A stretch of 64,000 nucleotides of DNA from Raillietiella orientalis (lineage: Eukaryota). A program made the translations under genes and the position numbers. Shown piece by piece: positions 15,701 through 63,228 of the stretch. How positions within the stretch are numbered: position 1 is the first letter of the stretch; each line of letters begins with the position of its first letter. Location: NCBI GenBank assembly GCA_036172245.1, contig JAYWIR010000029.1:186001-250000 (forward strand), written 5' to 3'. The notes under the pieces were generated by a model. That model searched no databases. It had not been told where the DNA came from and was given only the letters and a program-made list of their open reading frames with translations.

Positions 15701-18700
15701 TTGTATTGATTTAATGTATCATTTGCTTGGTTTTTCAGCCGTCGCCGTGTCTCCATTCTCAGGCAGGTGTTTTATCCTGCATGTTTACTTTTCTGCAAAT
15801 TGAATGAAGTTGAATTTGTGTCATGTGATCTTTAGTGTAGTAAAACTAACAGCTTGCACATCCTCCTGGCTTTTGAATTTGTAGTTAGTCATCTTGTTGT
15901 TCCACTTTTTATGGGGTTCTTTAAGTTTAACATTTTTTTTTTCTTTATAGATCTCAGACTTCCTTACAAGGAGATCCTGTGGATACTGAGGTTCAGTTAT
16001 CAAAAATGGATGTAGTTTTGTCCTTTGGCATTGAGGTAGGGAAATTATTTGAAAAACCAATGCTGAAAAACGCAGTAGGTTATCGTCATTGAAGTCCGAG
16101 GACTGAAATCCTTGCCTCCTAACAGAGTCGTCTATTGTACTATGGAAGTAGATGGCACTAAATTACAAACAGATCAAGCAGAGGCATCACGACCTATGTG
16201 AGAAGCTATTTGTACATTTGTTTAGTTTAGTTGCATTCACTTATTGTATACAGGTGGGATACTCAGGGTGACTTTACTACTACCAACCCTTTGCCAACGG
16301 TAAAGATCAAATTATATGCTGAGTCTGCTAGCATGTTGTCCTTGGATGATAAAGAACTAGGAAAAATTATTCTTCATCCAACTCCATTTTCTAACAAAGT
16401 ATCAGAACTAGGAAAAATTCCCCTTATTAACTTTTTTGCTTTCTAGAGCCCTGAATGGCATAAGATGTTGGTTCCTAAACATGTGGCAGATACAGATATT
16501 CATATTAAAGTTGCCTGCCGGATGGATAAACCTTTAAATTTGAAACATTGCGGGTAAGTTTAGAATAGAAATGAGCTGTTGATAAATGATCGTAGTTATC
16601 TGTATGCCCTGGGCAAAGGAGTATGGAAAAAATGGAAAAAACGTTATTTTGGATTGGTGCAAGTTTCTCAGTATACTTTTGCTATGTGTAGCTATCGAGA
16701 AAAGAAAGCTGAACCGGTAGAACTTCTCCAGCTAGATAACTACACAGTTGATTATATTGAAGCAGCCAGTGGTGAGTAGATCTTTGCCAAAAAAAAAAGA
16801 AGACAATTTCGAATTTTATTTTGCATTCAGTTTTTTTTGTGCATTATGCATTGTTATCGTTTTTGATTATTATCATGTCACTTTTGATTATTATTGCTTT
16901 TGGTTTCTAAAAACTTAACGCATTCATAAATCAGTTTTTATTTCTTCTTTGTTTTCTTGTAATTATCACCATGAATGTTTCTTTCAGCCAATCTAATGGT
17001 GGGCATGGGTGAGTAGTCTCAGTAGGTACAAAAAATTTGCAAAAGTAATTTTGCTAAGATTTGGAAGGCGGACGTTATTTTTTCAATGCAGTCAAAGAGG
17101 GAGATAGCGTCATTTTTGCCAGTGATGATGAAAATGAATATCATTTATGGGTGATGGCGTTGTATCGTGCCACAGGTCAAGCACACAAACCAACCCCACT
17201 TCTGATCCCTGCCAGTAATAGGAATTCAACAATTTCAAAATTGCAAGGAGGTAAAAGATTTTGCCAAATATTTTAATGGCTTGTGTAGATGCAGATCGAG
17301 CTCGCAAGCATGGCATGGAGGAATATATATGTGCTGATCCTTGTCAATTTGACCATCATGCCTTGTTTAAATCACTACAGGAAATGGCACTTGATTTCAG
17401 ACTTAAGGAACCATATTGCTCCCTGGTGAATATATCATTAGCATTGACTACATGTGATACTGTAAATCAGGGATGGTTCAGTCCAGGACAACTTCTAGTG
17501 CTTGATGAATATGTTTTGCGGTATGGTGTGCGGGGATGCTTTCGTCATTTGTATTATCTGGAAGATTTGTTAACAAGAGCAGAAAGTGGCATTATGATCG
17601 ATCCCAATCTTTTACATTTTAGTTTTGCTTATTGTGCCAGCCATGTTCATGGAAATAGGTAAAAAAAAAAAAAAAAATATTTTACTTCTATAACAAATGC
17701 TGAAAACAGACCTGACAATATTGAAACTGTGCTTCATGAAGAGAAACAGCGGTTCCAGCAGGTGAAAGAGAGACTACGTATTTTGTTAGAAAATCAAGTG
17801 ACAAGTTTTAGGTAAGATTCTTGTTAGAAGTTATCCCTACGAACCTTATTTCTTCACTAACATTTCTGTACTTGTTAACCCTAACAGGTATTCTTTCCCA
17901 TTTGGGAGACCTGAAGGAGCCCTCAAGTCAACGCTTTCACTCTTGGAACGTGTAGGTGTTTTTCAACTGTCTGTTTTTTTTTCCCCAAAGCACCATTTTC
18001 TCCCAATGACTCCATTGTTTATCTTGACCTTTAATGCTCTACCTTCCAGGTTCTTATGAAAGATATAGTTACACCAGCCTTGCCAGATGAAGTGCGCAAA
18101 GTAGTGCGTAAATGCCTTGAAAATGCAGCTTTGCTCAACTACGAACAGCTGACTGCTGATATGCAAATAGAAGGTGAACAATACAATTTTTATTGCATTA
18201 AGTTAATTCACTTGATTTCAGAAAATTTAGATCCTGAATCACAAGTACTTCCTTCAAAAAAATTAGAAGATTTAATTCATTTGGCTGAGTATTGTGTAGA
18301 TCTTTTACAGCATAATGAAGAGCATTATTCAGAAGTAAGTAGCATTGAAAAGCACTAAAGATGTTATCATCTCGCCAGGCCTTAGCATGGTTTAGTGATA
18401 TTGTGGTAGAGCATGAAGAGATTTTCTGGTCATTATTTGTTGTGGATATGGACCAAGTTTTAGAGGAACAATCATTAGACACTTGGGATGCGTTTCCATT
18501 GTTTCAAATTCTCAATGATTATTTATGTTCAGATGGTAAGGATGGCTCATTCCCCTATCGAAAAAAATTTTTTTCTCATCCTTCCTCGCAGAAAACTTGA
18601 AGAATGGACGATTCCATCAACATCTAAGAGATACATTCGCACCCATGGTGATTCGATATGTGGATTTAATGGAGTCGTCCATTGCCCAATCTTTATTCAG

Positions 18701-20305
18701 AGGGTTTGAAAAAGAGCGCTGGGAACAAAAAGGGTATGCTAGAAGAATCATTCTCGTTTTTCTTCATTGATACAATATGGTTCATTTTCGCCACCTGGAT
18801 TTTATAGGAATGGTTGTAACACATCAGAGGAACTTTTTTGGAAATTGGATGCTTTGCAGACGTTTATTTACGATTTGCATTGGCCTGATCCAGAGTTTGG
18901 TCACCATCTATGCCAGAGACTCAAGTCACTTGCCTGTGATATGCTTGAATCTTGTATCCAAAGGTAAACTCTTTGAAACAGGAAACACCAGTTTATTTTT
19001 TCATAGAACTGACGCTGCATTTCATCTTTGGTTGAAAAAAGGAGGCCTTTTTGCAGGCACAGATTATGTTTTGCCTGCTGAACTTTGCACTATGATTAAT
19101 GTGGTATTAGATACTAAAAACCAGTCTTATAAATTATGTGTTCTGGATGGTGTTGATTTAGTAAGTAAAATATTGATATTAATACAAAAATATTTCTGCT
19201 CAGCATCAGTACCACACCAAAATAGATGAACTAATCGAAAAGACAACCGTAGATATTGTTCAGAGTTTGTTGAATAAACTGCAGTCTGTCCTTGAAGGGA
19301 TATTAGGCAAACTAGCACGTTATGATGAAGGGAGCCTTCTTGGTTCCCTGCTTACATTAACGGTAGTAGATTTTACGTGTTTTTCCAACTGACTTTATGA
19401 CAGAGTGTATCTGGCTCTGGCCGGGAAGTAGGTCAAGCATACATTACATTTCTGCAAAACAATATGGAGCAAATGCGCACACGAATCAATGATGAAATGT
19501 GGCTTTTGGGTTTTTTTGAGGTAAATGATCTTGGTTTACTATTAGCAACAATCCATTAGCACTATTCTGTTTTGTCTAGCAATGGTATGCAAACCAAGTA
19601 CGTTTAATTAGTTCTTGGTTATCAGAGCGGTTGGATCATACTTTGCATCCTTATCAATGTACTTGTCTCTGTCACATCGTCAAGGTAATCTCGTTCTCAT
19701 TAGTTATTAGCACTGAATTAAGGGATGGGTGGGATAGGCTCTTCCAGAGGTATACTTTGCTTTGGGGGTCACTACTAAAAGGCGTCAGGCTCCAGCTCTT
19801 GCTGGTATTGATCAGCGTCTGGAAGCCATGATGGCCCATCTGTGAAGTCGGCCAGCCATAGGTAGTTTGGTAGTGGGGTGTGCTTGCTAACTTGGTGATG
19901 GCTGTGTGATATCAGAATATCTTATGCTAGTTTTCTTATGACTGTTGTTTTTTTTTTTAGAAACTCTACTCTGATTTTGAGCTGCAAGGAGTGGTAGAAG
20001 AAAAGCTCAATTCTCGAACTTACGAAACTATTCTGTTACGAATGCAGTCCGAGGAAGCAGCATGTGCCTTGCTCATGGATACCCACAAATCCACATCATT
20101 AGATTTTCAAGGATCTTTAAGGAAGTCTTCACATACAGCATCCTCTGGTTCTGCCTCTGCTCTTTGTATCAATTCAAACTCTGATTCCAATTATGTCACC
20201 AAGATTCACTCTGCTACATCTAATGTGGCAGGCCGTATGAGCAACATGTTGGGAAAATCAATTGGCTCATTTGCCAATAAATTTGGTGGTAGTGTTCGCT
20301 TTTGA
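6758..20305 (+). CDS. Cadps: Calcium-dependent secretion activator (CAPS/CADPS, UNC-31 orthologue) with C2, PH and MUN/MHD domains. Exons: 6758-6945, 10478-10595, 12653-12820, 12868-13043, 13101-13180, 13253-13398, 13444-13524, 13569-13738, (15739-15762), 15951-16035, 16079-16197, 16254-16398, 16447-16553, 16596-16771, 16988-17008, 17059-17250, 17289-17425, 17471-17658, 17710-17811, 17888-17951, 18050-18173, 18222-18334, 18379-18535, 18592-18733, 18808-18963, 19007-19160, 19204-19362, 19404-19520, 19580-19684, 19961-20305
   Basis: The spliced translation gives hallmark CAPS peptides: [10 protein letters not shown] start, [62 protein letters not shown] (C2), [32 protein letters not shown] (PH), [55 protein letters not shown] and DFELQGV. 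Introns are GT/GC-AG with consistent phases. Confidence 0.97.
15739..15762 (+). CDS. Cadps: Putative 24-nt CAPS microexon encoding (S)RRRVSIL(R)
   Basis: GC-rich 24-mer after tttttcag in an AT-rich intron. It is phase 2 to phase 2 between RRYNH and SQTSL if the GC donor (ag|gcaggt) is used. Confidence 0.55.
19738..19845 (+). CDS. Cadps: Putative alternative terminal exon of CAPS ([35 protein letters not shown])
   Basis: Phase-0 open segment after AG at 19736-19737, which gives a 53-nt intron from the 19685 donor. It aligns without gaps to the start of the canonical last exon. Confidence 0.6.
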   Translation, partial: ALPEVYFALGVTTKRRQAPALAGIDQRLEAMMAHL

Positions 20306-20561
20306 GAATTTTCGGATATTGCTCCTTTTAATCAGAAATAGACTCAGTATTGTGATGTTTTCTTATTCTTCTGATCCCTTTCATGTTTTGAAGTAACTAC
20401 ATTGATAAGAGTTATTACCATCCCATCCAGTTCTTTAGATTGAGACAGTGCTCCTTCATCTTTACATGCAAATGTTTCCAGTTAATCAAGTAATGATGCC
20501 TTCGATCTTTGATAATTTTTCTTAATCATTGTTATTGAATCATAAGAGATTTCTTTTGTAC

Positions 20562-20567
20562 AATAAA
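20562..20567 (+). promoter_or_regulatory. Candidate polyadenylation signal of CAPS
   Basis: AATAAA about 260 nt after the stop codon at 20305. Confidence 0.5.
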
Positions 20568-21292
20568 AAAAAATGCATTTTTGAATATGGTGTTTATATT
20601 AAAATTTAAAGCTATATGGGTGTCTTGGAGAACAGAAGAGTAAGCTTATTGGTAGTATTGATTAAAAAGTAGTATTGATTTTAAAAATTTGGTGAGCAAC
20701 TATTGGGAAATAAAAGCTAATTTGAAATGTGACTTACTTGCTCAAATTGTACATAATGCACAATTCGTTTCATTTAGTTGTATAATTATGTAATTATTTA
20801 TTGATAACTGTGTGTGACTTATTTGGCCCTAAAGGTCTATACAACTTTGGAATGTCATAAACTTCATTTTCAAAAGACAAGTGAGAAGTGATCTAGGGTT
20901 TTAAGCTCAGTGCAGAAGCATATGAGAAAGCAATCCTTGCAGAAGTATTTGCTACAAAGCATTAAATTGAAAATTGTCAATCAGTGTGTATAAAAAATTG
21001 ATACATTTGAAAGGAAACTATTGCAGCTAAACAAATTTTTGACAATTTTTTCATCAAGCATTTAATTTTGCTGAAGGGCTTTCATGCTTACTCTGAGATA
21101 TCTAGCTAATATCAGGATCCTAATTTGTTACAAGTCGAGATTTTCTATTTTTGTGAACTCTAAAATCAAACTAAGTGACTTCTTTCATGAATAGAAACCA
21201 TGATGAGATTTCAACACTATGTTTCTACCAAGATTGGATTTCAACTGTTGGATATTTCGTAGAGGAATATTCTTGTAGATATACTGCTGTAG

Positions 21293-22206
21293 ATGGTGTC
21301 TATGGCGGTTGTCTCTAGGAAACGAAAGTTTAGGGTGGCAACGGGTGTAGCGAAGAAGAGGAGGATATTTAGGAACCGTAGGGTGTTTAGGAGAAAGTGA
21401 TTGAAGAAGAGTTGTTGGCGGAAGCGACCGCGTGTGTCGAAACCTTTGAAGTGGAAGATGAGTTTTTTGAAGCGAGCGGTAGAGCGGATGACGATGATAG
21501 AGTGTCCGCATTACTGTTGTCACAGGATGAAAACAGGTGGAAAAGTCAACACAGCGTGGATGTTTAGTTATAGGGAGTTGGAAGGCGACGTATTGTCGTC
21601 ATTGAAGGATTGAATTTACAAGATTTGTGCAGATCCTTCCAGTACATCAAGTTCGTGGGAGTTCCGTATAAATTGGAGCCATTGACTCTTGGGAAGTCTG
21701 GTTCGACCATGGGAGAAGATTCGGGGCTTAAGATCTCTTATAGGAATATGATTTTGTTTGAGCCTGCAAGTGCTCCGGAGACAGCATGGAAGTTGGAGGG
21801 GAAGTCGTATGACGAGGTACAGTCGCACCTGAGTACTTACTCTGAGACCCCTGGTCATTGGAGGAAGTACTTTGGTGTGAAAGGAGTGAGGTGGTTCGTG
21901 AGATCGAAGTGTCGAATAAATATGCCGTATGAAGGTGGACCGAAGTATGTGTATCCGAGAAGTCCGTGGATGGAATGTGCACAAGGAGGATCATTAGACG
22001 CAGAGATGTATTGCAAGATTTACAAAGGACGGGTATATGTAATGAATCATATGTCAGGGCAGGAAATCCCGGACAACTTCAAGAACGGAGGGAACCAGGG
22101 TGTGTTTCCCGGCATAGGGACAATGAAGGCAGGAATGCCTGTGTATAGGCTATCCTCGAAATGTTATTTTGTTTTTAAAGGAGCGAGAGATAAAGGACTA
22201 TGTTAG
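21293..22206 (+). pseudogene. cap: CRESS-virus capsid-protein-like pseudogene
   Basis: ATG 21293 opens the Arg/Lys-rich arm MVSMAVVSRKRKFRVATGVAKKRRIFRNRRVFRRK*LKKSCWRKRPR, with an in-frame TGA at 21398-21400. After a frameshift near 21600, ORF 21610-22206 contains FQYIKFVGVPYKLEP, which resembles the circovirus-type F-x-Y-x-R/K-h-x-x-V-x-h-x-h-x-P strand. It is convergent with Rep. Confidence 0.75.
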
Positions 22207-22221
22207 TGATCTGATAAATGT

Positions 22222-23001
22222 TTATTTCGTCTTAGCAGGATACATCGGTAGCATCTTGGAGAGGAGAAGCTGGAGGAGTAGGCCTCTCGAATGGCATGAG
22301 GTTGCCTGCGTCGTCCATGAAGTTTTCTTTCGATTGGAATGTATGTCCAGGTCAATTATGGTCCAGCCATCCTAGCTCAATTTGGAGAAGTCAGATTGCC
22401 AATTAGCAAATACGATCACGTGGGATGTATCATAACACTTGATGGACCCCTGATATTTGGGGTCGAAGAGAATCCCGTTTTTCAGGGATTCGATAAATCC
22501 ATACTGGACGAGCTCCTTTGCATCGCGTGTGAAGTCGACGATGATAATCGACTCGCCATTGTAAAGATGGGCAGCGTCTGCCTTACAACTTTGCTTATAG
22601 ATGGCCTTTTTTATGAAAAAGAGATATTTAGCAAAGGTTGTTTTGCCTGCTTTGCCTCGTGAATCTTTGACCCAGTGAATCTTCCTTGTTCTGAGCAATT
22701 CAATGATGTCAAGCTGCCATGAGCGAAGACGTACTGAAGCCATCGAGTCGTTGCGGAAGATGCGGAAGCATTTCTTAATTAAATTAATGTCCCGCGAGTA
22801 AAACTTTGTCTAGTGTTCCAGGATGTACTTTTCGTTATACCCTGATTTGATAAGTTGAAGAATCTGGAAATAAAGATAAAGCAGTGATGTGATGAATGGA
22901 AGAGGTGAATTGATGGTTACCTTTTTCTCGTAGTTTTCTTCTGAGGGATTATCATCCAAGGCGCCGTATGTCCATGGATTAGGGTCTTGCTTGGAACAGT
23001 A
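22222..23001 (-). pseudogene. rep: Rolling-circle replication initiator Rep pseudogene, 5'-truncated; segments 23001-22921 and 22863-22222
   Basis: Contains RCR motif III YCSK (23001-22990), LRSWQ, Walker A region RKIHWVKDSRGKAGKTTFAKYL, Walker B IIIVDFTR, YGFIESLKNGILFDPKY, motif C HVIVFAN and KLS*DGW at the arginine-finger position (typically KLSxDRW). This is a nanovirus/alphasatellite-like SF3 helicase. Premature TAG codons at 22812-22810 and 22374-22372. The terminal TAA (22224-22222) overlaps a minus-strand AATAAA (22226-22221). Confidence 0.93.
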
Positions 23002-24784
23002 CTGTAGAGAAATAGAACAAACAATTCTCCGGAAAAATATTGAGAAATAAAAACTGGCTTAAAAATGAAAGCATTGATCCTAACTATTAGGCAATTACAT
23101 AAATAATTAAAATGAAAAAAGACAAATCACCAACCATCATCGTATGCAGTTCGAGTTTGCTAAGGAGTCACTAAGAGATGTTCAGATGAGTACATGGCAA
23201 TAATTACAGAAATAAAGGAAACGGTATTCAAGGAGGAAGTATTAACCATGCTAAGTCCTAATCTTGATGTTTACCTTATGTCCTTAGCATTTACATTGTT
23301 ATGTTTATTTTGTGAGCATAGCAATAAGAGCAGCATAAGCAGTTGCAGTTTCCCTAATTTGGAACCCTACAATATTTTTATTACTTTAGCAAATTAGGTA
23401 TGGGATCTCAAGCAACAGTTCATCGATTCTGCAGTAAAACAAAGAAATTAGCTAATTAATTACACACTTTGGAACGATAACTACAAAACAAGGAGAGAGC
23501 ATTTTCTTTTACATTAAACTTGAGAATGAAGCATTGTTAATAGTTACACTTGTATATTAATATGCTTAGCAAGAAACTCTGTAAAGAATTCCTATTAAGA
23601 TACAAGACATCAAGTGCTTGAAAGAGATTCACTAACAGTAAAGCTTTGTTGTGAGAGCATGGGGATCACTATCTGATGTACAGGTGTAAGTTTAGGTTAT
23701 CACTTGCCCACTATGGATAAGAGTTCGTTATGCCTTTCTTTCTTGTTCGTAATAACTCGAGTTTTACTGTATGTTTTTCCTTTCAGCACATAACTTTTGG
23801 TACTGAGGAAAGAACTAAATCCTTTCAATACAATAGCAACAGAAAATCTGCAATTAAAAACACAAAATGTGACAAAATCCAAAAGTTAAAAAACAAGAAC
23901 AGTGTCTCCTACAAAATCATTCCTAATGCGATGAAAGATCCTGAATAATTTCGGTTCCTTAATGTCCTCCTTGATTCATGAACATGGAACTGAGATAATT
24001 AGGAGTTAGTCTTTAAAAAGCTCCTAAATACCATGGAAAGAAATAGTACAGTTTTGATATTGCATACTCATTAATTATTAGGTGCGTATAAGTATGCCTA
24101 CCGCAAAAGATTTTGGAAAAAAATTTCTTTCTTGTGGACCTGTAATGCTTTTCATTCATGAATAGTCAGATACCAAATGTAATTAGCAAATACTGTGCAC
24201 AAGTAAGGTTTTTAATTTCCAAAAAATGAATTTTGGATGAATATCCAGAGGTACGAATTAGTATTTGGGTTGATTTTTCACCATGAATAATTTTGATTGT
24301 CATTGCAATAGGGAATAATTTTTGAAAAATACTTTAACTTTCTGATTCCTGAAAGATGGATTGAATTTTTCTTTTCTGAAAATTCCTGTAAAATATTTCT
24401 GTCTACACGAGCATTATAACGAATGGATCTTTCATTTCTAATAGGCAAAATTAATTTTTCTCTCGTATGTGCATTATTGATACACAACTGTGGAAATTTT
24501 TTTATAAGTTCCCTGCTTGATTGGTTTAAGCTCACCTTTTTTAAAGCTTAAATTTAAATTTCAGTTAGAGTTAATTTTAGTTATATCTGTGAAGGAAATT
24601 CTAATCTTTTGTTTAGTTAAGTTAAAACATAATCCTGAATACATATTGAGGTATGCTTTCATGTAATACAATGTGTGCCATTTTTTTTCCTCTCTTTAAA
24701 TTCGCAATGCGTATGTTTTGAGAGGTATGCGTTGTCTGATTGCATCGACTTGCAAAGTGTTTGCCCGTGCCATTAAATAGAACA

Positions 24785-26013
24785 ATGAATCCTCATTATT
24801 CGAAAGGTAATTTATTAATTTTTTTAATTCTTACATTCTGATGGATTAGTGTATACATTTCGTTTGCAGCTTTCCATAGGAGATTGTAAAGAATTAAGTA
24901 TCATAATGCAAATTATCTATGCAATAGCATTTTTAGTGTGACCAGTAGTTTTCATTTCAACCATTTCATATTCGGAAGATTGCCCTTTGATTGTATATTT
25001 GCTAACTTCATTTGGTACTCTATAGTACTCTATTGTTGTTGTAGTAACCGTGCCCATATCTATTGTATTTACATACCGTTAAAACATCCTTATAGTTTTC
25101 CATTTTTCATTACATATATGTAAATTTGTTTCACTGTTTTATTTAAGTTAAGACCAGAATAACATGTTTTTGTTAAAGGTTCATTGCTACCAACCCAGAA
25201 GTCTCAGTGTAGATTGTACGCCATGAAATTCTGCCCCTATGTACAAAGAATAGCATTGGCCATGACTGCGAAAAATGTAATGTATGTTTGTTTAGATTTC
25301 ATTGAAATGTAATCACTGATATTTTGTACAGATATGAAACAGTGAACGTGAATCTTGTAAATAAACCAGAATGGCTTTTTGAGAAAAACCCATTTGGAAA
25401 GGTACCAATTTTGGAGCACAATGGAAAAATTGTATATGATAGTCTCATTATCATTGATTACCTCGATGGTACCTTTCGAGAATTTCCTTTGCAGTGTACT
25501 GATCCATATCAAAGGGCTTGTGATAGAATGTTTATTTTATATCTTGACAAGGTTATTTGAACATGGAATTCCGGATGCTTCTTGTAATTGTAGATATCAA
25601 CAACTATGTACAAGCTATATACTGTCAAAGACTGGAGAACAGAAGCCTTAAGTGTGCAGTCTTCCTTGGTTGATGCTGTGACTCCCTTTGAGATGGAACT
25701 GCAATCTCGATCCACATCATTTTTTTCAGGTTAGTGTTATAATGGCGGTAGGATTGATTTTTTTGATACAGGAGAACGACCTGGATTTGTTGACTATGTT
25801 ATTTGGCCGTGGTTCGAGCGCATACAGATGCTTCCTTTGATTACACAACAGGAGACAGCAATATCTAAAACAGGGCTTTTGAAAGAGTGGATGAGGAACA
25901 TGATGTTGGACTTTGCTGTTCAGAAGCATTATATCCACCCCAAGCATTATTTAAAATTCCTTGTAAGTGTCCATGAGCACAATCCAGATTATGATATGGA
26001 CTTTGAATCTTAA
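24785..26013 (+). CDS. GstO: Glutathione S-transferase, omega class. Exons: 24785-24806, 25179-25281, 25332-25551, 25594-25729, 25772-26013
   Basis: RLYAMKFCPYVQR (omega active-site Cys), VNLVNKPEWLFEKNPFGKVPILE, YDSLIIIDYLD, DPYQRACDRM, FFSGERPGFVDYVIWPWFERI and C-terminal NPDYD. All introns are GT-AG and phase-consistent. Confidence 0.95.

Positions 26014-32948: not shown

Positions 32949-63228
<30,280 letters not shown>

Follow-up and report, generated by a model that had tools for sequence, protein, structure and literature searches.

Layout of the locus

The window, that is, the whole stretch of 64,000 nucleotides that was analysed, contains between two host genes a GC-rich island at positions 21293-23001 (GC 44-47% versus ~30% in the surroundings). 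In 300-nt windows the GC fraction is 0.44-0.47 across 21300-22799, compared with 0.27-0.33 on the left and 0.32-0.36 on the right; the step is sharp at either end, with the right-hand boundary placed only within ~23001-23040. The island carries a remnant of a replication protein (Rep) gene on the minus strand and, on the plus strand, a reading frame that we describe as a putative capsid gene. The host exons on both sides and the elements at the meeting point of the two frames are:

19961-20305, plus strand: last coding exon of CAPS with stop codon 20303-20305; aligns to residues 1272-1386 of the 1386-aa termite CAPS
22207-22221, between the strands: spacer of 15 nt separating the convergent stop codons
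22213-22218, plus strand: GATAAA hexamer
22226-22221, minus strand: AATAAA hexamer overlapping the Rep stop codon TAA (22224-22222)
25163-26013, plus strand: glutathione S-transferase (GST) exons with GST_N and GST_C

Upstream of the last CAPS exon there are exons of the MUN domain; the CAPS exon at 17255-17659 has insect and crustacean CAPS as best matches (63-69% identity). The GST has a CPY motif, presumably as in omega-class GSTs, and an intron of 50 nt (GT..AG). Host exons of the same strand thus flank the island left and right within a single contiguous sequence; both flanks are AT-rich, and the interval from the CAPS stop codon to the GST gene is ~4.9 kb. A preliminary description of this DNA had placed an ambisense cap/rep cassette with stop codons 15 nt apart between CAPS and a GST, and our coordinates agree with the location as well as with the layout. 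Poly(A)-like signals had been described on both strands, too. The hexamers are indeed present at these positions; however, GATAAA is not among the canonical poly(A) hexamers, and such hexamers are frequent in the region (the plus strand of 21001-23400 has ten, counting AATAAA, ATTAAA and GATAAA together).

Around the ends of the island, direct and inverted repeats were sought; none amounted to a noteworthy target-site duplication or terminal repeat, and no hairpin suited to an origin stem-loop was present at the ends. The NANTATTAC-type nonanucleotide, the only type sought, had no match on either strand of 20000-24500. Rfam gave no match over the whole window.

The Rep remnant

The recognisable part of Rep begins at a YCSK tetrapeptide and continues in one frame up to the stop codon next to the spacer, with the following features:

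22222-23001, minus strand: Rep remnant, from YCSK to the stop codon TAA; covers profile positions 106-319 of 346 (E 1e-46)
22990-23001, minus strand: YCSK, aligned to homologues at HUH motif III (YxxK); 5' limit of recognisable Rep
22864-22920, minus strand: in-frame GT...AG stretch of 57 nt with a pyrimidine tract; candidate intron of the viral Rep
22810-22812, minus strand: first in-frame TAG
22639-22656, minus strand: Walker A, GKAGKT, of the SF3 helicase domain (G135, G138 and K139 invariant)
22534-22548, minus strand: Walker B, IIIVD (D175 invariant)
22402-22410, minus strand: motif C, FAN (N219 invariant)
22372-22374, minus strand: second in-frame TAG, within the conserved C-terminal motif

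When a profile of 37 related Reps was compared with the 2747 six-frame pieces of the window, the only match in 64 kb was the piece 22375-22809 of the minus strand (E 3.1e-38; the next piece had E 2.9); for the Rep frame read through its stop codons the E-value given above was obtained. The origin from a CRESS-DNA virus, claimed in the preliminary description, is well supported by these values. A search with the single Rep sequence produced two matches among 301 candidates, both of them Reps with PF02407 on contigs of 2.6-2.7 kb, and with the profile 724 of 6283 candidate proteins reached E<=1e-5; contigs of 1-4.6 kb carried almost every one of the 120 profile matches listed. Pairwise, the Rep was 37% identical (54/145) to the Rep of one metagenomic contig, P0002, with E 2e-28. 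Pfam reported for the Rep ORF only a sub-threshold RNA_helicase (E 0.009, 16.9 bits versus a cutoff of 21.5). A phmmer search of the read-through frame against PDB gave a chance match to thioredoxin reductase (E 0.43) and nothing else.

The AF2 model of the helicase part reached pLDDT 83-91 in the core blocks. Compared with BFVD, it had 274 matches at E<=0.001; among the top 50, every named match was a replication protein, in almost all cases from a small circular ssDNA virus or a satellite. Matches in PDB were AAA+/SF3 ATPases, including BPV E1, vientovirus Rep and the PCV2 Rep ATPase domain.

At the 5' side of the frame, the piece 22813-23058 taken alone was absent from the 30 best-scoring pieces listed for the profile and has no score of its own. 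YCSK lines up with YxxK in all homologues, with Y20 and K23 invariant. The 57-nt stretch corresponds to 19 codons that each of the nine aligned homologues lacks; judging from its boundaries and pyrimidine tract, it may have been an intron of the original virus. At eight columns identical in the nine homologues the Rep has a different residue, while for each homologue taken in turn the number of such columns is 0-2.

Motifs I and II of the HUH endonuclease were not found anywhere in the window, either by tblastn with two full Reps or with the 37-sequence profile. The gene pair had been described as a near-complete virus; with only the part from motif III to the C-terminus left of Rep, and with no origin nonanucleotide, this does not hold. 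We read the absence of motifs I and II as truncation of the copy and not as an argument against descent from a CRESS Rep. Relaxed tblastn of 39 Reps versus 20001-25000 gave noise only; its recurring weak matches at 21301-21197 of the minus strand, with the motif II-like string HHLQQY at 21285-21299, scored E 16 with the profile and were rejected. A permuted integration of more than unit length, with the N-terminus of Rep left of cap, was rejected because of this score and because there is no space for motif I and the intergenic region.

With respect to its relatives, the Rep sits, as a long branch without a settled place, among metagenomic CRESS Reps that are unclassified and come from contigs of 1-3.5 kb. 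Of 41 IMG/VR loci found with the Rep, 24 were contigs of 996-1416 nt; names were checked for 13 of these 24, and all 13 were alphasatellites. In the free tree the Rep falls outside the starred alphasatellite clade of 12 rows. A clade uniting it with the 12 alphasatellite Reps was not rejected (p-AU 0.604); its lnL exceeded that of the quick free tree by 6.76, the group having been chosen after the tree was seen; as both branches are long, attraction between them is possible. The tree was built without a circovirus Rep, and the named sequences included no nanovirus master Rep apart from one structural match (BBTV, rank 11). With this sampling, the names and the tree test agree with the alphasatellite side of the nanovirus/alphasatellite-type helicase proposed in the preliminary description.

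The plus-strand reading frame

Facing the Rep remnant, the plus strand shows an interrupted reading frame:

21293-21400, plus strand: start of the reading frame, with ATG at 21293, an R/K-rich N-terminus and an in-frame TGA at 21398-21400
21401-21613, plus strand: continuation of the same frame beyond TGA, an N-terminal piece of 70 codons with stop 21611-21613; no Pfam match and no usable Atlas match
21574-21610, plus strand: stretch shared by the two plus-strand frames, both of them open here
21574-22206, plus strand: ORF of 210 codons, putative capsid body, with stop TAG 22204-22206

Since the two frames are both open only in 21574-21610, any single frameshift should be situated there. Together, one TGA and one frameshift in the putative cap and two TAGs in Rep make up the four lesions listed in the preliminary description, and this list stands. 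The capsid-like reading frame has 304 codons in total.

Homologues of the 210-codon ORF were sought in several ways. Exhaustive HMMER found no match among 1.84 billion representative proteins; Pfam found none for the plus-strand ORF, Circo_capsid (PF02443) included; comparison by phmmer and blastp with ORFs of 41 and then of 117 related loci (1469 ORF pieces) gave nothing below E 0.1; hhalign against 13 non-Rep ORF families gave probabilities of <=1.2%, no better than those of reversed or shuffled controls (<=2.7%). The Atlas feature score of this ORF to Cressdnaviricota clusters was 0.95, with a recognition of 2128, below the mark of 2300 under which a high score counts as weak evidence only. 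The top Atlas clusters belong to Cressdnaviricota, and some of them carry Circo_capsid (14% of members) or Smaco_capsid (21%). The single-sequence AF2 model (pLDDT 31.8) was too poor for any fold search, including one for the jelly-roll expected by the preliminary description, whose designation of the ORF as cap gained no support from homology.

One could argue that the Rep alone is the trace of a viral gene with known function, the plus-strand ORF being some other viral ORF or a frame kept open by G-richness of the strand. Such an explanation is favoured by the failure of all sequence methods to produce a homologue, by the lack of a usable fold, by the weak Atlas recognition and by the plus-strand GC skew, which is +0.30 to +0.49 over 21300-22199; long open frames appear easier to get in this stretch, as the minus strand facing the putative cap also has ORFs of 116-137 codons. 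Yet the ORF shares the GC island with Rep, and the two stop codons face each other at a distance of 15 nt, a convergent arrangement that ambisense CRESS genomes usually have; the 210-codon frame is longer than any other open frame in the island; and the neighbouring frame upstream provides an ATG and an arginine-rich stretch (R or K in 25 of the first 60 codons). In addition, according to the account in PMC6069186, no detectable homology is to be expected for the capsid genes of CRESS viruses from invertebrates. We consider the explanation without a capsid gene rather unlikely, though it is the strongest of the alternatives. The position of the ORF, its basic N-terminus and the weak language-model match suggest that the plus-strand ORF is a capsid gene.

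Origin of the element and known systems

The cassette is very probably an endogenous viral element: a linear, 5'-truncated and decayed copy of an unclassified CRESS-DNA virus. Its integration is suggested by the lesions, by the truncation and by the host DNA on both sides, all of them features of the sequence.

A quite improbable explanation is that of an assembly chimera or contamination, in which an exogenous CRESS virus, or a virus from a food item or parasite, contributed reads that were misjoined into a host contig. The composition of the island, sharply unlike that of the flanks, would fit such an origin, and small circular viruses are described as common contaminants (in PMC6069186, where endogenous elements are the subject). 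However, in a replicating virus the only two genes would not be broken by three in-frame stop codons and a frameshift, and Rep motifs I and II and the origin would be present; moreover, two false joins would be needed, one per side, to host DNA of a single locus. Hardly credible is a viral Rep helicase that was domesticated as an expressed host gene and has introns of host type, one at the 57-nt GT..AG stretch and one at the acceptor-like 'ctacag' directly upstream of YCSK, the first Rep-like codons: the insertion is intron-like and similar in size to the intron of the GST gene, but two in-frame TAGs interrupt the helicase frame, the protein departs from its homologues at the eight otherwise invariant columns, and the window has no upstream exon with motif I or II.

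Returning to the endogenous viral element, one could propose the following history. A circle of 2-2.5 kb, the genome of an unclassified CRESS-DNA virus, would have been opened within or just upstream of the endonuclease region of Rep, and motifs I and II as well as the origin would have been lost because of the opening at this place; alternatively, they may have been deleted later. The resulting 5'-truncated linear copy of ~1.7 kb would have been inserted, presumably in the germline, into the interval between the CAPS stop codon and the GST gene of an arthropod-like animal, to decay thereafter. Three stop codons in ~566 codons would roughly correspond to a neutral divergence of a few percent, with a very large margin of error. 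The rolling-circle replication of HUH Reps cannot start without the nicking domain and the origin, and the element is now probably functionless.

CRESS viruses close to the Rep of the element are almost all metagenomic, with no host assigned. An integrated copy between host genes would show directly that germline nuclei of this animal lineage were once entered by such a virus. The element also keeps a candidate capsid gene of a kind missed by homology screens; such missed genes may partly explain why fewer cap-derived than rep-derived elements are reported, as far as the survey in PMC6069186 goes. The practical value is modest: the locus could serve as a dating and host-link marker if compared among relatives, and its sequence as a query for a living virus.

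One could speculate further that the element stems from an unsampled CRESS lineage of arthropod-like animals that has left no other trace so far, with a Rep that is the animal-side sister of plant alphasatellite (perhaps nanovirus) Reps and has a short spliceosomal intron, and with a capsid founding a sequence family with no known member. Taken as a whole, this reading is improbable; if true, the Rep lineage would gain a direct link to an animal host, with a bearing on the origin of alphasatellite Reps.

Among known systems, Reps of Alphasatellitidae (Faba bean necrotic yellows C11, C7 and C1; geminivirus alphasatellites) are 25-35% identical to the element in the helicase domain and have in common with it the pattern of Walker A, B and C and the C-terminal S.DR motif. 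Alphasatellites, however, are capsid-less, Rep-only circles of plants (1.0-1.4 kb), whereas the element has an adjoining capsid-like ORF and resides in an animal genome. The best sequence matches are metagenomic CRESS Reps from contigs of 1.9-3.5 kb (P0187, P0193, P0002 and L001), with identity of up to 44% over 46% of the query for P0187. Their domain order from motif III on is the same, but they are complete Reps on small contigs, with motifs I-III (PF02407), while the Rep of the element starts at motif III; and none of their neighbouring ORFs resembles its capsid candidate. Named metagenomic relatives are Skomarfal virus 56, uncultured marine virus, Temperate fruit decay-associated virus and Crucivirus-88.

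The ambisense two-gene layout is common to the element and Circoviridae, and the PCV2 Rep (8xms_C) has the same SF3 helicase fold (TM 0.53 by target length, rmsd 4.1 over 126 columns, E 1.6e-3). Nevertheless, the profile of the element's relatives aligns to PCV2 Rep 7lar only over the endonuclease half (positions 8-157), in line with the earlier remark that the helicase is not of circovirus type, and the Circo_capsid family of Circoviridae has no Pfam match in the element.

Endogenous CRESS elements of arthropods are well documented in reports on such sequences (PMC6069186, PMC6186406). There, Rep-derived sequences in host DNA, often with stop codons and frameshifts, are described with mites, spiders, insects and crustaceans as frequent carriers, and the elements of invertebrates (CVe/CEV) are traced to uncharacterised CRESS lineages. 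Being Rep-derived, often decayed and embedded in host DNA, CVe/CEV are similar to our element, although its Rep is neither circovirus- nor cyclovirus-like. All the new elements of the 2018 screen, as presented by Dennis et al. 2018 (PMC6069186), were rep-derived and none cap-derived; here, in contrast, a putative cap stands beside rep in the viral arrangement. An endogenous cyclovirus element of a parasitic helminth, in the description by Rosario et al. 2018 (PMC6186406), keeps both Rep- and capsid-derived sequences, as does our element, with the capsid only putative. Both genes of the helminth element are recognisably of cyclovirus origin, whereas our element has an unclassified Rep and a capsid candidate lacking any homologue. 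Viral fossils of this kind are thus already known, and the cassette between CAPS and GST is a new, partial example of them.

Island layout and host locus

The element, an island at 21293–23001 of the window, differs from its surroundings in GC content (44–47% in 300-nt windows, against 27–33% in the left flank and 32–36% in the right flank). To the left, ORF 19961–20302 (+) matches the final 115 residues (1272–1386 of 1386) of termite CAPS, and its end coincides with the C-terminus of that protein. For another CAPS exon (17255–17659), nearly all of the 120 matches listed are insect, springtail or crustacean CAPS at 63–69% identity, a lancelet entry (38%) being the sole exception; the host would thus be arthropod-like, though no near relative of any species in that list. 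To the right are exons of a GST gene, which we take to be of omega class by its CPY motif. The placement between CAPS and GST genes, made initially from the sequence alone, thus holds. About 1 kb separates the element from the CAPS stop upstream of it. The cap ORF (the putative capsid gene) is oriented as CAPS, and the element lies in intergenic DNA or in the CAPS 3′ UTR.

Features of the CAPS–GST interval (read-through, the Rep frame translated through both in-frame TAGs)
Upstream of the CAPS last exon: MUN-domain exons
21293, plus strand: ATG, start of the cap ORF
21398–21400, plus strand: in-frame TGA of cap; the frame goes on beyond it
21611–21613, plus strand: stop, end of the first cap frame
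21574 to TAG 22204–22206, plus strand: second cap frame, open for 210 codons
22213–22218, plus strand: GATAAA
22226–22221, minus strand: AATAAA, overlapping the Rep stop
23001 to TAA 22224–22222, minus strand: Rep frame, a single reading frame with two internal TAGs
22812–22810, minus strand: TAG, first in-frame stop of Rep
22374–22372, minus strand: TAG, second in-frame stop of Rep
22920–22864, minus strand: 57-nt intron-like stretch, read-through residues 47–65 (GT start, pyrimidine tract, AG end, in frame)
From 25163: GST_N and GST_C exons

The two open cap frames overlap only at 21574–21610, so one frameshift within this segment would join them; the terminal stops of cap and Rep are 15 nt apart. 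Frames, stops and overlap read from the sequence agree with the coordinates and the four lesions listed in the preliminary description.

In the window at large, GC is 28–38% at 2–32 kb and rises to 45–58% at 42–64 kb (2-kb bins); in the GC-rich half all six frames contain long open stretches, and an Ets-domain exon lies at 43470–43952 (−).

The Rep remnant and its probable integration

Searching with the read-through, we found two matching proteins among 301 candidates, both with PF02407 and from contigs of 2.6–2.7 kb; the better one has 37% identity (54/145 residues, pairwise E 2e-28). Pfam detects Viral_Rep in both homologues; in the window's own 145-codon Rep ORF it detects only RNA_helicase, below threshold (E 0.009, 16.9 bits; cutoff 21.5). 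A profile of 346 positions, built from 37 related Reps and run against the whole window as 2747 six-frame pieces, had a sole match, 22375–22809 (−), at E 3.1e-38 (next piece, E 2.9). On the read-through its positions 106–319 were aligned (E 1e-46). The aligned stretch opens with YCSK, which resembles motif III, and takes in Walker A (GKAGKT), Walker B (IIIVD), motif C (FAN) and, at its far end, the conserved C-terminal motif. The profile matches and the PF02407 homologues bear out the earlier view of a Rep of CRESS virus type; judged from these alignments, the minus-strand gene is part of such a Rep only.

Profile positions 1–105, with motifs I and II, found no match in the 64 kb, whether by tblastn (two full Reps, or 39 Reps in a relaxed search) or by the profile, and there is no origin NANTATTAC in 20000–24500. 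Therefore, the virus cannot be called near-complete, as had been proposed: the nicking domain and the origin are missing from this copy. No hairpin or terminal repeat marking the island ends was found. A motif II-like string, HHLQQY at 21285–21299 (−), recurs in relaxed tblastn, but with a profile E of 16 it was taken as chance; on the other strand, its position overlaps the start codon of cap. Directly upstream of YCSK, at 23002–23040 (−), there is a pyrimidine tract ending in 'ctacag' and, in the YCSK frame, an RR pair spaced from YC as the conserved RR in homologues. Because of these, the true 5′ limit of viral DNA may lie up to ~40 nt past 23001, though GC falls at 23001.

An AF2 model of the Rep part, built on an alignment of nine homologues, had mean pLDDT 68.3 (83–91 in core helicase blocks). 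Foldseek against PDB gave seven matches at E≤0.001, all AAA+ ATPases; among them are bovine papillomavirus E1, AAV2 Rep40 and a vientovirus Rep hexamer. The ATPase domain of PCV2 Rep ranked 17 (E 1.6e-3, target-length TM 0.53, rmsd 4.1 over 126 columns). These scores, though weak, are consistent. In BFVD, 274 matches had E≤0.001; the named ones in the top 50 are all replication proteins, nearly all from small circular ssDNA viruses or satellites, such as Cruciviridae sp., uncultured virus, banana bunchy top virus master Rep (rank 11) and shrimp-associated circular virus (rank 22).

The intron-like stretch at 22920–22864 falls within an insertion of ~35 residues relative to the Rep profile, and within an insertion relative to nine of nine aligned homologues. 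Removing its 19 codons leaves the same spacing as in P0187, a related Rep, between the YG that follows motif III and the conserved helix that comes next. The first GST intron (25286–25335, GT..AG), 2.4 kb from the Rep insertion, is ~50 nt long; very short introns thus occur in the host, which bears on how the insertion is read. Introns are known in Rep of arthropod-associated CRESS viruses (PMC6186406). We regard the 57-nt stretch as a candidate, and probable, intron of the original virus.

The window Rep differs at eight columns identical across the nine homologues (one of them in a conserved motif immediately after the second Rep stop), while each homologue, taken in turn, differs at 0–2. 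We infer that the element is integrated in the host genome, because its lesions are impossible for a replicating virus, its nicking domain and origin are lost, its Rep departs at these eight columns and both its sides are host DNA of one locus; a chimeric assembly is a very improbable alternative to integration at this locus.

The plus-strand reading frame

The plus-strand ORF is likely to be a capsid gene, a reading based on position in the island, convergent layout, basic N-terminus (R or K at 25 of the first 60 codons from 21293) and a protein-language-model look-up. In the latter, the nearest clusters were Cressdnaviricota (first match 0.95, 198/256 features), and in some of these Circo_capsid is present in 14% of members or Smaco_capsid in 21%. 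The recognition value of 2128 does not reach the 2300 mark, below which the tool counts a match as weak evidence. Pfam assigned no family to the ORF, exhaustive HMMER against 1.84 billion representatives gave zero matches, and there was no match to 1469 ORF pieces from 117 loci with related Reps. In hhalign against 13 non-Rep ORF families of these loci, probabilities were ≤1.2%, with reversed or shuffled controls reaching 2.7%. An Atlas look-up of the 70-codon N-terminal piece returned no usable match. A single-sequence AF2 model (pLDDT 31.8) was too low in confidence to be compared with the single jelly-roll expected of the capsid.

Relatives of the Rep and documented endogenous elements

An IMG/VR pattern scan proposed 139 candidate stretches, of which 44 were confirmed, giving 41 loci, the best of them with 33–37% identity on contigs of 2–3.5 kb; 24 of the 41 are on contigs of 996–1416 nt, and all 13 looked up among these 24 are named alphasatellite Reps. 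In four loci (L002–L005) the Rep match is divided between two frames just past Walker A (ORFs of 218 and 118 codons), which could reflect an intron or a frameshift, at a site other than that of the window's insertion. L002 and L005 share an 8.3-kb contig with a repeated unit that looks like a concatemer.

Of 6283 candidates in a profile search of 5.8 billion clusters, 724 proteins reached E≤1e-5. Among the 120 listed, nearly all are on 1–4.6 kb contigs, four are virus-named (Skomarfal virus 56, uncultured marine virus, Temperate fruit decay-associated virus and Crucivirus-88) and the top identity to the window Rep is that of P0187, 44% over 46% of the query. Three Rep-like proteins among the 120 listed (P0227, P0279, P0271) come from long contigs: one contig of 825,018 bp encodes two of them, and another of 32,209 bp the third. 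They could be additional endogenous copies within cellular genomes; in the tree P0227 and P0279 pair with each other (starred), apart from the window Rep. Two partial 'hypothetical proteins' labelled Neisseria meningitidis, from an 1100-nt contig (P0007, P0008), share a 90% cluster with a faba bean necrotic yellows alphasatellite Rep; they are probably contamination of that bacterial assembly.

In the Rep tree (48 rows, 312 columns, quick IQ-TREE, LG+C20, built without circovirus, nanovirus master or plasmid Reps) the window Rep is on a long end branch (1.72), without a settled place inside a 30-row group (SH-aLRT 85) that also contains a starred 12-row alphasatellite clade. A sister position to the alphasatellite Reps is allowed by the aligned sequences, because a tree constrained to the window plus these 12 rows had lnL 6.76 better than the quick free tree and p-AU 0.604, the group having been named after inspection of the tree and the branches being long on both sides. 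DDF is the circovirus-type helicase signature; that the helicase is not of circovirus type, as described earlier, is consistent with the relatives' profile aligning with PCV2 Rep structure 7lar over its endonuclease half only (positions 8–157).

CRESS-derived endogenous elements are recorded in mites, spiders, insects, crustaceans, molluscs, cnidarians and helminths; the new elements of one screen were all rep-derived, and its authors note that divergent cap genes may go undetected (PMC6069186). A helminth element that combines Rep and capsid sequences is also on record (PMC6186406). Our literature search returned no report of this CAPS–GST element, to which we give little weight. Interest attaches to the orphan capsid candidate, to the intron-like Rep insertion and to the possible sister relation to alphasatellite Reps. 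Since CRESS endogenous elements, including one with Rep and capsid, are already documented, the CAPS–GST element is a further example of them and not a new kind.
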